24,281 nucleotides of DNA from IMG/VR virus record IMGVR_UViG_2675903394_000002, positions 1 to 24,281 of that record; one strand, 5' to 3'. This stretch comes from a virus (lineage: Duplodnaviria; Heunggongvirae; Uroviricota; Caudoviricetes). Each line of letters starts with the position of its first letter. Position 1 is the stretch's first letter. Below, in pieces: positions 6,148 through 9,506 of this stretch. The notes below the pieces were generated by a model. It searched no databases. It saw only the letters and a program-made list of their open reading frames with translations, and had not been told where the DNA came from. A program made the translations under genes and the position numbers.

Positions 6148-6641
6148 TGTTGCCCCCATAAACAGACTTCACGCTCAATCTCACGGCGAGTCATCAGCCC
6201 TTTCCATTGCTTACCGCCAGCGTATGTCCAGCGCCGTAGCTGATCACATGCGCCTTTGATATCGCCCTGGTTTATTTTGCGAAGAAGCGTCGATGTTCTG
6301 AAATTGCCAGCGCCCACGTTGTAAACGAACGAGTAAAGAGCGCCGCGCGTTGTTTCCGGTATATCGACTTTGATGTACGGGTTAATTTGTCTGGCGACCG
6401 TGGCAAGGTCTTTATTCAGGAGGGCTTTGCATTCTGCTTCGGTATACGTTTTACCTGGTATGATGTCTTTTCCGGTGTGTCCGTGACATACAGTCCATAC
6501 ACCAACAATATCTTTGTATGGTATGTAGCTGACACCTTCCAGACCATCGTTACCACTTGGACCAGTGATGAGCACAGACGCTATGGCAACAGCCCCACCA
6601 CCAATAGCAGCAGCAATAGCCTTGCGTAATGATGGCGACAT
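6144..6641 (-). CDS. R: SAR endolysin (lysozyme, phage 21 R-type, 165 aa)
   Basis: N-terminal Gly/Ala-rich signal-anchor-release helix ([18 protein letters not shown]) followed by a T4-lysozyme-like domain; the sequence closely resembles phage 21 R as I recall it. Confidence 0.9.
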
Positions 6642-6856
6642 TATTCACCTCTCGCAGCCTTACGCTTATCTTCTTTAATCTTGAAATAAAGGTTTGTCAG
6701 ATACGTCAGCAAGCCAAATACCAGACTACCCAGCACACCTATTGCCGCCCACTGTGAGGGCGTGACTTTATCGAGCAACTGTAAAAACCAGTACCCGGCA
6801 CTACCTGCTGAGGTGCCATAGGCGACACCCGTTGTTAACTTATCCATGGATTTCAT
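6641..6856 (-). CDS. S: Pinholin, phage 21 S-type (71 aa) with dual-start motif MKSM
   Basis: [71 protein letters not shown]: two TM helices, resembles S21. Ribosome-binding site GAGGTGGAG upstream of the start at 6856. The ORF track extends to 6910. Confidence 0.85.
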
Positions 6857-7123
6857 AACTCCACCTCGCAGATGCGGGTGCAAATTGAGAGAATAAAAAA
6901 TCCCCGACAATTCCAGATGTCAGCGGCCTTAAATATAAAAACAGGCAAATGCCGAGGCCCGCTAATCGTTGCCACTATGAGCGCTGCGACGCCATTTCAT
7001 CCAGACAAGCTATCAGATACGGAAGCCGTGCTGCCGCTTTTACGGCATTGTATTCACTATACTTATCTATTCTGATATCGTTAAATCAACAGAAATAACC
7101 AATATCAGAAGGAACGCATTAAT

Positions 7124-7672
7124 ATGGCGAACAATCTTTTTTATACACTTGACAGGCAGCGCACACTGAAGTCAGGCATGAAAATTGAATTAGCAGAACC
7201 GTACTGCCCAATCGTTCCACTTCAGGCTCATACGAGCTCATTGTTTTCCGACGGTGTATCCCGGCATGCAAATAATCTTTTTTTCAACTACCACATAAAC
7301 CTCGTCAGCTCAGACGAACGATTTGGAGCAATAATAGAAATACTACTGGAAGAACGAAGGAAATCACACTTCCCTGAAAAACCATCACGCTTCCAATCAA
7401 TTTTTGCATGTGAGTCTGTAAAAGAAACCGCCTGGTTCAGAGGCTTTTCAAAATCCCCACTTGACACCCCAATATTTCAAGTCAGCTCATCGTCGAACTA
7501 TCATAGAGGTGATATGAATTTGTTAAATCTGAACTGCTCCCCAGTAGAAGTATCTCAGAGGCTGGATCTTTACTGGAAGGGTGAAACAACACAGATTTAC
7601 GAAGGGTATCAACCATTCTGGGAAGTGCTCATTCCATTGCCAGTTATTATTGGTGAAAGAATTATCGAATAA
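7124..7672 (+). CDS. Hypothetical soluble protein (182 aa), first gene of the inverted insertion between S and Q
   Basis: ORF on the strand opposite to the late operon in an AT-rich insert. No TM segments and no family recognised. Confidence 0.6.
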   Translation: MANNLFYTLDRQRTLKSGMKIELAEPYCPIVPLQAHTSSLFSDGVSRHANNLFFNYHINLVSSDERFGAIIEILLEERRKSHFPEKPSRFQSIFACESVKETAWFRGFSKSPLDTPIFQVSSSSNYHRGDMNLLNLNCSPVEVSQRLDLYWKGETTQIYEGYQPFWEVLIPLPVIIGERIIE

Positions 7673-7862
7673 TGGCTCTGACACCAGAATCATTTCCATA
7701 GCCGAACTGACGCTGACAGATTTTTAATTCGCTTATGGCTTTCTCCATTGCTAATAGCGCGTCTTCAGTACGGTAGCAATCAACCTCAAGAACAAACGTT
7801 TTGAGATTGCTACTATCATTCCCGGCGAAAAGCGCATAGCTGGGTTGACCAGTCTGATTCAT
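7662..7862 (-). CDS. Possible small antisense ORF (66 aa) whose start abuts a G9 tract
   Basis: ORF-track entry; the start ATG at 7862 is immediately preceded on the minus strand by GAGG plus a run of G. It converges on and overlaps the 3' end of the 7124-7672 gene by 11 nt. Could be spurious. Confidence 0.25.
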   Translation of the reverse strand: MNQTGQPSYALFAGNDSSNLKTFVLEVDCYRTEDALLAMEKAISELKICQRQFGYGNDSGVRAIIR

Positions 7863-8014
7863 CCCCCCCCCTCAAACGACGAAACCCGCTCGACGGCGGG
7901 TTTAAGCCACGTGACAAAGTAACCACTCTTAACACGATACAATAGTTTTTGCGTACGCGTTAGCATTTTTGTTAAAGTATAAAAATGTAATTAAACCAGT
8001 ATGTCATCACTACA

Positions 8015-8899
8015 ATGAAATGCATCCGAAAACATCCAGCAATAGCTTATACAGTAATTATTTTAGTTTTTGCCTTAATATACAATTTCACTTGGAGCGT
8101 CAATCCAGATTCTTTCATTAAAAACAACGTTCTCAACTCTACACCTGTATATGATGCCGTTAATTTAGCATATGCGAACAATGAGGTAAAAAAAGAAGCT
8201 CCTGTCAGTGTTTCGAGGGAAGTATTTGCAGAGCAAATTTTAACACTTACAAATCAATTCAATAAGATAATAATTGAAAACTTAGAACTTGAAAAAACAT
8301 TATCTCAGCAGCAAGAAAAATTAAAACAAATTAGTGAAAGACAATCAATAAAGTGGGGCGAAAACACCAAAAAATACATAGCAGACAGTTTGAAAGATTT
8401 ACACAAAACGCTTATCACTAAAAATAGTGAACGTACTGCCATAGCATCTTTAAAAAACAAAACAAATGAAAGTCAGATTAACACTATGCTGGCCGACAAA
8501 GATGAAGAAATAGCCAAAATAAACCTTGAAATAGCGTATAAAGAGTATGATGCTAATGTCTATATCTTATCTCATGTCGGCGACTTTAACGATCCAATAA
8601 TCGTTAATGAGCTTGACGCAATCAATAAAGAAATTGAGAAAACAAGAACAAAAATAATAAACAACAAAAAGAAAATAATGGAGATAAGGAATAAATCTCA
8701 ATCTATGCTGGAGAAACTCAAAAAAGATGACCTTAACTTTTTGGATTTCTTATTTTATAGCATAGGAATATCTACAACGACCACCTTTGGTGATTTGTTA
8801 GCAAATTCAAGACTTATCAGACTGATAGTTTGCGTGCAACTTTTACTATCAATTATAGTTTTAGCTAACGTAACTCAAAGATTTTTATCAAAAAAATAA
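8015..8899 (+). CDS. Hypothetical membrane protein (294 aa): N-terminal TM helix, Lys/Glu/Asn-rich coiled-coil domain, C-terminal potassium-channel-like pore helix/filter/TM module
   Basis: Hydrophobic segment AIAYTVIILVFALIYNFTW at about aa 9-27; heptad-like K/E/N/I-rich middle; C-terminal NFLDFLFYSIGISTTTTFGDLL (nt 8726-8794) followed by TM helix LIRLIVCVQLLLSIIVLANV. Very AT-rich codon usage. Confidence 0.7.
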   Translation: MKCIRKHPAIAYTVIILVFALIYNFTWSVNPDSFIKNNVLNSTPVYDAVNLAYANNEVKKEAPVSVSREVFAEQILTLTNQFNKIIIENLELEKTLSQQQEKLKQISERQSIKWGENTKKYIADSLKDLHKTLITKNSERTAIASLKNKTNESQINTMLADKDEEIAKINLEIAYKEYDANVYILSHVGDFNDPIIVNELDAINKEIEKTRTKIINNKKKIMEIRNKSQSMLEKLKKDDLNFLDFLFYSIGISTTTTFGDLLANSRLIRLIVCVQLLLSIIVLANVTQRFLSKK

Positions 8900-8906
8900 A
8901 AAACAA

Positions 8907-8926
8907 AGCCCTCAAAAATGAGGGCT
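8907..8926 (-). terminator. Rho-independent terminator hairpin (agccctca-aaaa-tgagggct), strongest on the minus strand just downstream of Q; also positioned to terminate the plus-strand 8015-8899 gene
   Basis: Perfect 8-bp stem with 4-nt loop. On the minus strand it is followed by UUGUUUUUUAUUUUUUU; on the plus strand by AAUUUAAA. Confidence 0.6.
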
Positions 8927-8936
8927 AATTTAAACC

Positions 8937-9281
8937 TTAAGATAAGAACGATAAAATCCCGTCCAAAAATCCTAGTGCAGTTTGCAATTCCTTTCTAATC
9001 GTGCCATCTGAACACCTTCTCTTCTTGGCAATAGTGCGTAATGAGATACCAATAACAAAGTGGGCAATTAGTAGCTCATATTCTTCTGGCTTATATTTAC
9101 GCAACCTCGCCACACATCCATCAATCATAAGACCTTCATCATCATCACACTGCATCCGGGACTTTTTGCCATGAGGTAAAAGCCCCTTGAAGCCTGCTGC
9201 TATCGGCTGCCAATCCACACTACTGTTATCTGCTGCAGCCCATGCTCCCCAGCGGTCCAAAACTTCATACATGTCACGCAT
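8937..9281 (-). CDS. Q: Late-gene antitermination protein Q (DLP12 QuuD-like, about 114 aa)
   Basis: MRDMYEVLDRWGAWAAADNSSVDWQPIAAGFKGLLPHGKKSRMQCDDDEG... resembles DLP12 QuuD as I recall it. Ribosome-binding site GGAGAAAG upstream of the ATG at 9281. The ORF track extends to 9335. Confidence 0.8.
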   Translation of the reverse strand: MRDMYEVLDRWGAWAAADNSSVDWQPIAAGFKGLLPHGKKSRMQCDDDEGLMIDGCVARLRKYKPEEYELLIAHFVIGISLRTIAKKRRCSDGTIRKELQTALGFLDGILSFLS

Positions 9282-9365
9282 CAACTTTCTCCACAAAATC
9301 AGGCCAGCACGCCAATTACAAGCAAAAATCAACAAAACAGTATTAGTTGATTGTTATCTCTGACT

Positions 9366-9506
9366 TCATACTCCTGCTCCTGTCAGGGTTTTGGCGTAAT
9401 TCTTCAGTATTCGGTAATCGGTCAAAACAGAACCGGGGAAACGATATAAGCGCAGACGCCCCCAGCGGTGGCGAAGAAGTTCTGCTATATTAAACTCAAA
9501 CATCAT
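9366..9506 (-). CDS. ylcG: Small nin-region protein YlcG-like (46 aa)
   Basis: Manual translation gives [46 protein letters not shown]. The start overlaps the rusA stop. Below the ORF-track size cutoff. Confidence 0.65.

Follow-up and report, generated by a model that had tools for sequence, protein, structure and literature searches.

The DNA analyzed here (hereafter the window) comprises 24,281 nucleotides, i.e., positions 1 to 24,281 of the IMG/VR virus record IMGVR_UViG_2675903394_000002, and is a lambdoid prophage with its late operon on the minus strand. It contains nine consecutive C at exactly positions 7863-7871 of the plus strand, which is a G9 tract on the minus (late) strand, directly in front of the start codon of a minus-strand open reading frame (ORF) of 66 amino acids (aa). 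With moderate confidence, we propose that this tract is the ribosome-binding site (RBS) of a genuine gene, the first of the late operon, that has turned into a slippage-prone homopolymer, that changes in its length tune the translation of this gene, and that its variability is a by-product. As a hypervariable homopolymer in a 5′ untranslated region (5′UTR) or RBS, the tract belongs to a known kind of feature. Homopolymer-driven variation in expression is well known from Neisseria, Haemophilus, Campylobacter, and mycobacteria; to our knowledge it has rarely been reported for enterobacterial prophages and rarely at an RBS. The two features at the center of the argument are:

7863..7871, minus strand: G9 homopolymer (C9 on the plus strand), putative Shine-Dalgarno (SD) sequence plus spacer of the 66-aa gene, length G8-G12 in relatives
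7662..7862, minus strand: gene of the 66-aa protein (PHROG 10826, no Pfam family), first ORF after a terminator-like hairpin in the direction of the late operon

The position of the homopolymer agrees with a preliminary description of this DNA, which had reported a run of nine C between two cargo genes, abutting the ATG of the 66-aa ORF, and an overlap of 11 nt between this ORF and the 3′ end of the 182-aa gene (7124-7672). On the plus strand, the context of the run reads gattcat-CCCCCCCCC-tcaaacgacgaaacccgctcgacggcgggtttaag, with cat and tcaaacgacg as the flanks of the tract. A homopolymer census identified it as the sole run of at least 8 bases in the window; the next-longest run of G or C is 5 bases and runs of A or T reach up to 7. 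The C8/G8 pattern, of which two overlapping matches were observed, is expected 0.25 times per dinucleotide-preserving shuffle and at least 2 matches were reached in 4 of 100 shuffles; the run is, therefore, unusual, yet not overwhelmingly so from composition alone. With nine bases in the window and 8 to 12 in relatives, it is long enough to slip (about 8 bases or more for G/C).

Tract length was compared among loci that encode an identical 66-aa protein, which derive from assemblies, viral contigs, and one metagenome, and which represent 20 independent contigs after removal of duplicates. Nine of these contigs carry G9, six G10, three G11, and one each G8 and G12. Length polymorphism occurs within all three cargo haplotypes (187-aa, 294-aa, and porin), and several loci with 0 mismatches over 2,100 flanking bases still differ in the length of the tract (L005/L008, L013 or L017 vs. 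L020, and L020/L029). The control runs within 1.2 kb were invariant (A7 in 20/20, A6 in 17/17, and T6 in 20/20 loci). The tract is hypervariable, because five lengths occur among 20 contigs with near-identical flanks while the nearby A7, A6, and T6 runs are constant. The preliminary description had proposed a slippage-prone tract, and the range of G8 to G12 among independent contigs with nearly or fully identical flanks bears this out; across related prophages, tract length is variable and not invariant. An exact-pattern scan of species-representative genomes yielded no tract-bearing locus, and a scan of metagenomes yielded one.

It could be argued that the RBS is static and that the apparent length differences are mostly errors of homopolymer sequencing or assembly, since several platforms make errors in G/C homopolymers of 9-12 bases and the loci are of mixed source (Logan and ENA assemblies, drafts, and complete genomes). 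However, the same loci show no such variation in their A7, A6, and T6 runs, five lengths were encountered, and complete genomes are among the carriers of G8, G10, and G12. Furthermore, non-modal alleles recur independently with identical flanks: G11 was found in three independent sources (L013, L017, and L029; a complete genome, a draft assembly, and a metagenome) and so was G10 (L004, L011, and L020). Assembly error does not explain this pattern well and a static RBS is, in our view, unlikely; we infer from the sequence comparison that the length differences stem from slippage.

The ORF downstream of the tract is a genuine gene, because the ratio of its nonsynonymous to synonymous substitution rates (dN/dS) is 0.08-0.16 in pairwise comparisons with four diverged homologues (from Serratia and three further contigs), at dS values of up to ~1. 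Its product matches PHROG 10826 at 2.4e-40, and both the start codon and the SD position of the gene are conserved in diverged homologues. The AlphaFold2 model of the protein (beta-beta-alpha-beta; predicted local distance difference test score of 71) gave no specific fold match, nor was there a specific sequence match. The earlier label of “antisense ORF” is misleading: the 182-aa cargo gene is the only one to which the ORF runs antisense, and it is sense to the late operon, being co-oriented with Q, holin, lysozyme, and terminase. On the minus strand, an antiterminator gene Q of the phage 82 type is followed by a cargo gene on the opposite strand, a conserved element ending in a hairpin and a U-tract, and then UGA-G9-AUG of the 66-aa ORF. 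Because of this order, the ORF is the first one of the late operon and not an antisense one.

Databases also list gene calls of 90, 91, and 93 aa (P0001-P0005), which correspond to the 66-aa protein extended N-terminally through the poly-G tract, read as poly-Gly, into the promoter/terminator element; their poly-Gly junctions imply further G8, G11, and G10 alleles. We reject these extended proteins as real products: they depend on tract length modulo 3 and on TTG or GTG starts inside the element, and they are absent from diverged homologues. They are an annotation artefact of tract length modulo 3. One 65-aa variant (P0012) has N- and C-termini identical to those of the 66-aa protein and a middle part that is out of frame, due either to two frameshifts or to an error in the sequence of this one assembly.

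The origin of the tract can be approached through the diverged homologues of the 66-aa gene. At the position of the tract these have an ordinary SD sequence (GGAGGGGGU, GGAGGCGGU, or AGGAGG) with the same spacing as in G9, and the tract-equivalent sequence in diverged relatives is GGAGGGGGT, GGAGGCGGT, GTGAGGCAGCT, GGAGGTTTGT, or AGGAGGACACT. In five diverged lineages, the sequences in front of the start codon are:

L027: CUGGAGGGGGU-AUG
L028: AUGGAGGCGGU-AUG
L025: GUGAGGCAGCU-AUG
L030: CUGGAGGUUUGU-AUG
L033: CAGGAGGACACU-AUG

All five hold a canonical SD sequence at the tract position (GGAGG or AGGAGG in L027, L028, L030, and L033; GAGG in L025), immediately past a terminator-like hairpin and U-tract; the window, read on the late strand, has the hairpin, UUUCGUCGUUUGA, G9, and the AUG of the 66-aa ORF in this order. 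The tract would, therefore, be an SD sequence and spacer that became homopolymeric, since the diverged homologues hold an ordinary SD at the same position and spacing. Because CGUUU and AUG are 11 nt apart in L027, L028, and the G9 window alike, four substitutions that left the length unaltered seem to have turned CUGGAGGGGGU into GAGGGGGGGGG. G9, the modal length, is then probably also the founding one. The tract is confined to one shallow lineage, all diverged homologues having the ordinary SD.

The G-rich sequence would still be able to serve in initiation. UGAGGGGG at the 5′ end of the tract can form 8 base pairs, including 2 G·U pairs, with the anti-SD sequence CCUCCUUA, and the GAGG and G5 registers are also possible; a purine-rich sequence complementary to the anti-SD is thus present within about 4-12 nt of the start codon. 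Each of the lengths observed leaves a G-rich, SD-like stretch close enough to the AUG to be used. The suggestion in the preliminary description that the tract may affect translation initiation holds insofar as the tract lies in the initiation region of a real gene. Its other suggestion, an effect on promoter spacing, finds no support, as no promoter-like site spans the tract, which on the late strand lies downstream of the conserved element and the terminator hairpin. Because the tract precedes the AUG and falls neither within the ORF nor within a predicted promoter (a promoter scan gave no promoter-like hexamer pair across it on either strand), a change in its length cannot shift the reading frame of the 66-aa gene or alter promoter spacing.

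The effect of length on translation was estimated with a home-made, simplified thermodynamic model in the style of the RBS Calculator, in which UGAGGGGG pairs with the anti-SD and the remaining G serve as spacer. Relative initiation predicted by this crude model for G8 to G12 is 0.18, 1, 1.95, 4.8, and 9.5, respectively, all below the value for the RBS of the Salmonella homologue. Tract length, therefore, probably tunes translation of the 66-aa gene in a graded way, rather than switching it. A precedent for such an effect is the poly-G indel in the 5′UTR of Mycobacterium tuberculosis espR, which raises translation (PMC11898584). Taken together, the proposed sequence of events would be as follows. 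In one enterobacterial lineage, an ancestral SD region CUGGAGGGGGU-AUG would have been converted into GAGGGGGGGGG-AUG by four substitutions, creating G9. A G/C run of at least 8 bases would then slip during replication, giving G8-G12 among otherwise identical prophages. Shut-off by frameshift would be impossible with a tract outside the ORF, and a G-rich sequence complementary to the anti-SD would always be left. A change in length would only shift the distance of the fixed 5′ SD core (UGAGGGGG) to the AUG and the pairing of the tract with the CCCGCC arm of the terminator. As an outcome, translation of the 66-aa protein would vary by degrees and, according to the prediction, increase with tract length.

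Alternatively, the tract could be a true contingency locus, i.e., a selected and reversible high-frequency ON/OFF switch of the 66-aa protein, creating subpopulations that differ in the state of the module formed by this gene and its DUF2441 neighbor (the 182-aa gene). Like the contingency loci with poly-G/C in Neisseria, Haemophilus, Campylobacter, and Bordetella, and like M. tuberculosis espR, the window has a G/C homopolymer of at least 9 bases in a region that controls expression, here abutting a start codon, and its length is polymorphic between very close relatives with identical flanks, neighboring A/T runs being stable. The model predicts a ~50-fold range from G8 to G12, and alleles other than G9 are skewed to longer tracts, with 10 expansions vs. 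1 contraction. The espR tract, in which an indel alters translation, is also located in a 5′UTR, and the tract of the window is likewise predicted to act on translation (PMC11898584). However, on/off switching would be expected of a tract inside an ORF or between the -35 and -10 hexamers, and the tract of the window is in neither place, so that it offers no binary switch of frame or spacing. The SD-like sequence is kept within a usable range at every length and the predicted changes are graded. Moreover, the tract occurs in one shallow enterobacterial prophage lineage whereas older homologues have a normal SD, which points to a recent accident and not to a maintained switch. A contingency locus thus seems improbable. 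Because the tract is found only in one shallow lineage, its variability is most likely a by-product of a young homopolymer rather than an evolved switch.

The region upstream of the tract on the late strand comprises the following features:

7904..7974, minus strand: conserved non-coding element, putative late promoter region of the phage 82 type judging from conservation and location
7951-7958, minus strand: palindrome GCGTACGC, resembling a Q-binding element (QBE)
7939-7944, minus strand: -10-like hexamer TATTGT (TAnnnT type)
7919-7933, minus strand: conserved, almost invariant stretch GTTAAGAGTGGTTAC
7882..7903, minus strand: GC-rich hairpin AAACCCGC-CGUCGA-GCGGGUUU, putative first terminator of the late operon (tR′-like)
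7872..7884, minus strand: U-rich tract UUUCGUCGUUUGA, 3′ of the hairpin on the late strand

The hairpin corresponds to the palindrome aaacccgc/tcgacg/gcgggttt that had been noted previously; the palindrome is real, although it lies at 7882-7903, ~3 nt to the left of the position given. It has a minimum free energy (MFE) of -14.5 kcal/mol, is followed by UUUCGUCGUUU, and could also terminate transcription on the plus strand. The counterparts of the U-rich tract in relatives are UUUUGUCGUUU, UUUUUCGUUU, or UUUUUUUGUGUUU, and nine of 10 relatives folded individually have, in the same location immediately ahead of the SD, a stable hairpin (-11.7 to -21 kcal/mol) that varies in sequence and is followed by a U-rich stretch. 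An Rfam scan of 6800-9400 at E up to 1 returned only two sub-threshold chance matches (RyhB-like and a small nucleolar RNA). In three loci of the porin-cargo haplotype (L005, L007, and L008), a G-to-T change in the 3′ arm of the hairpin (GCGGG to GCTGG) breaks the stem, with a shift in MFE from ~-14.5 to -6.5 kcal/mol, which may make the terminator leaky.

Of the region 7000-9000, only a non-coding element of ~114 nt (7861-7974) matched complete Escherichia coli genomes (190/5,426, with 87-90% identity). In E. coli genomes, Shigella phage SfII, and a Stx2a phage, it is always located between opposite-strand cargo adjacent to Q and the late genes, which are the holin or, in the Stx2a phage, methylase-tRNA-stx2AB; the first ORF after the element in the latter phage is unrelated to the 66-aa protein. 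A Klebsiella prophage (L030) has no cargo on the Q side and the element directly follows the stop codon of Q. Thus, in the window and in L001, L002, L030, L031, and L032, the element is found between a PF06530-type Q, with or without opposite-strand cargo, and a holin or stx2. The palindrome varies by lineage (GCGTACGC, TACGTACGTA, or TGCGGTCCGCA), the GTTAAGAGTGG stretch downstream is invariant, and the TAnnnT hexamers are conserved. Upstream of the -10-like hexamer, the palindromes are GCGTACGC at 7951-7958 in the window, TTTACGTACGTAAA at ~2893-2906 in L005, and TGCGGTCCGCA at ~2889-2899 in L030. A lineage-specific palindrome combined with an invariant GTTAAGAGTGG would fit a QBE co-evolving with Q alleles. 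In L001, L002, and L031 (E. coli prophages and SfII), which lack the 66-aa/DUF2441 pair, GGGGCTGGGG is present just after the hairpin where the window has G9, and may have persisted there from the same G-rich SD region.

In phage 82, the QBE is located between the promoter hexamers and a -10-like element of the sigma-dependent pause is found early in the transcribed region, with Q presumed to bind as a dimer (PMC4914094). We infer that the element of the window is a pR′/QBE/pause/tR′ module of this type, because its layout matches the late promoter of phage 82 as described in PMC4914094. As in phage 82, Q belongs to the PF06530 type and the element precedes the lysis genes or, in the Stx2a phage, stx; further likenesses would be the palindrome flanked by putative promoter hexamers, the conserved stretch that would be transcribed first, and the hairpin with U-tract. 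In contrast to the phage 82-type leader, an opposite-strand cargo gene splits Q from the element in the window, and promoter, pause, and QBE are recognized there by conservation only, consensus scans being silent.

With this layout, the tract could also have a role at the level of RNA or transcription, either as a GC-rich downstream duplex that boosts pausing or termination or by pairing of its RNA with the CCCGCC arm, which would remodel the read-through leader. The tract begins 11 nt past the stem and would, therefore, fill the downstream DNA channel of the polymerase at the U-tract. In read-through RNA, the G run is predicted by folding to pair with the CCCGCC (5′) arm of the hairpin, as it does in MFE structures of the leader, and the predicted cost of opening the RBS (-12 to +3) increases from 5.7 kcal/mol for G4 to 11-13 kcal/mol for G9-G14. 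However, the cost changes little from G8 to G12, so that the predicted effect over the observed lengths is nearly flat, and the folding z-score of the leader (-0.74) is unremarkable. The same architecture is, furthermore, present in relatives with the same hairpin and no G run (L003 and L032) and in relatives with other hairpins. Such a role is compatible with a function of the tract as RBS; as the explanation of the tract it appears distinctly unlikely. A role on the plus strand, i.e., in promoter spacing for the 294-aa cargo gene or as C-rich Rho-loading or terminator context for the DUF2441 transcript, is highly improbable: although the sequence around C9, immediately ahead of the hairpin and ~190 nt past the DUF2441 stop codon, is rich in C and poor in G, no promoter-like hexamer pair spans the run on either strand, the run is 144 nt upstream of the start codon of the 294-aa gene with the hairpin in between, and the equivalent position in relatives goes with the SD of the small gene rather than with a feature of the plus strand.

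The interpretation of the tract as an RBS that became a slippage-prone homopolymer also has to be weighed against several observations that count against it. Some of the length differences could be homopolymer errors in assemblies. The effect on translation relies on the home-made simplified thermodynamic model, which is accurate only to a few kcal/mol. The excess of expansions (10 vs. 1) is not required by a by-product and might reflect selection. The pR′/tR′ assignment is comparative only: a scan with the sigma-70 consensus found no 9-of-12 promoter in the conserved element, a simple terminator scan did not list the hairpin at 7882-7903, where only 4 of the 8 following bases are T, and RNAalifold recovered 0 compensatory pairs, the hairpins of distant relatives not aligning column by column.

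The genes surrounding the tract and element in the window are:

8937..9281, minus strand: antiterminator Q (114 aa; Phage_antitermQ, PF06530, type; of the phage 82/DLP12 QuuD kind)
8015..8899, plus strand: 294-aa cargo protein with an N-terminal transmembrane segment, a long coiled-coil-like middle part, and a C-terminal K+-channel-like pore (TTTTFGD)
7124..7672, plus strand: 182-aa DUF2441 protein with an ADP-ribosyltransferase (ART)-like fold, convergent with the 66-aa gene with an overlap of 11 nt
6641..6856, minus strand: holin (71 aa), the lysis gene that comes first after the cargo pair in the direction of the late operon

Lambda-like E. coli phages match the window over long stretches at 96-99% identity, the best coverage (82%) being that of PhiR34_1. 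This closest deposited phage has no match to positions 6890-9234; the gene order from its annotation gives a minus-strand late operon of Q, holin, lysozyme, Rz, Nu1, and terminase A. The 294-aa gene is located between Q and the conserved element on the opposite strand, and its product passes the Pfam Ion_trans_2 cut-off barely (24.4 vs. 22.5 bits). In relatives, its slot is occupied by a porin (OmpD/NmpC-like), a 187-aa protein, or two-gene cassettes. Because relatives hold different cargo at this place, the slot, which is bounded by Q and the late-promoter element, resembles a hotspot of exchange. A second strong hairpin, AGCCCTCA-TTTT-TGAGGGCT, with A-runs and T-runs on its flanks, is present at 8907-8926, 10 nt past the stop codon of Q and just beyond that of the 294-aa gene, and looks like a bidirectional terminator between Q and the convergent cargo gene.

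The 66-aa gene is almost always found in a convergent pair with its DUF2441 partner, i.e., in Serratia, Klebsiella, Salmonella, and other enterobacterial contigs. The 182-aa protein matches a family of the ART clan and fits the ART fold, and the DUF2441 alignment has invariant residues R11, S46, S88, R89, H127, E142, Y150, and E167. DUF2441 without the small gene occurs in a Yersinia locus (L036) and in Klebsiella phage KP12. In Serratia fonticola (L025; CP054160.3, 3305-4692), the pair is situated immediately downstream of a hicA-hicB toxin-antitoxin pair and the terminator of the latter, and upstream of the holin. The pair is listed by a protein index in about 680 blocks of assemblies. It was found in 0 of 5,426 RefSeq complete E. 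coli genomes, which contain only the 114-nt element, and in no deposited phage; a profile scan of species-representative genomes recovered only the Klebsiella homologue. PADLOC and NCBIfam returned nothing for either the 66-aa or the 182-aa protein.

The arrangement is reminiscent of the taiEcA/atiEcA genes of phage phi80, a “noncontiguous operon” in which an immune gene on the opposite strand is expressed in the lysogen and a small late gene counteracts it (PMC11364771). Both have cargo directed against the late operon and a small co-oriented gene near the start of the Q-controlled late operon, and an opposite-strand gene that interrupts this operon and is paired with a small late-operon gene occurs in the window and in more than 20 relatives. 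In the window the two genes converge with an overlap of 11 nt. However, there is no sequence homology to Tai or Ati: when 50,697 phage records were searched by tblastn, phi80 was not among the matches of the 182-aa protein, and the 66-aa protein had no match at all. ART toxin-antitoxin or immunity pairs (DarT-DarG, RES-Xre/ParST, and Rhs TreX-TriX) and the ART anti-CRISPR AcrF11 are further systems for comparison. In contrast to the ART toxin pairs, the genes in the window converge instead of being co-transcribed, no similarity to known antitoxins could be detected in the small protein, and DUF2441 also occurs alone.

By analogy with these systems, and as a hypothesis only, the DUF2441/66-aa module could be a toxin/immunity or defence/counter-defence pair. 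A more specific version, in which DUF2441 would be a toxin or anti-phage effector of the lysogen, the 66-aa protein would provide self-immunity or counter-defence, and the hypermutable poly-G RBS would act as a stochastic rheostat on the dose of the immunity factor, is improbable. If true, a population of lysogens would contain varied ratios of effector to inhibitor and, hence, vary in the strength of defence or the outcome of induction.

The case illustrates how an ordinary SD sequence (GGAGGGGGU) can become a hypervariable tract through few substitutions, and how such a tract, depending on its length, misleads gene callers into “extended” proteins of 90-93 aa. It also points to a widespread and uncharacterised prophage module, composed of an ART-fold DUF2441 protein and a convergent 66-aa late protein in a moron slot between the putative tR′ and the holin, which is a reasonable candidate for a toxin/immunity or defence/counter-defence system. 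The interest of the tract derives mainly from this module of an ART-fold protein and a small protein, which it may tune. If tract length does tune the small protein, nature would provide here a simple case of an accessory module of a prophage whose dosage is tuned stochastically.
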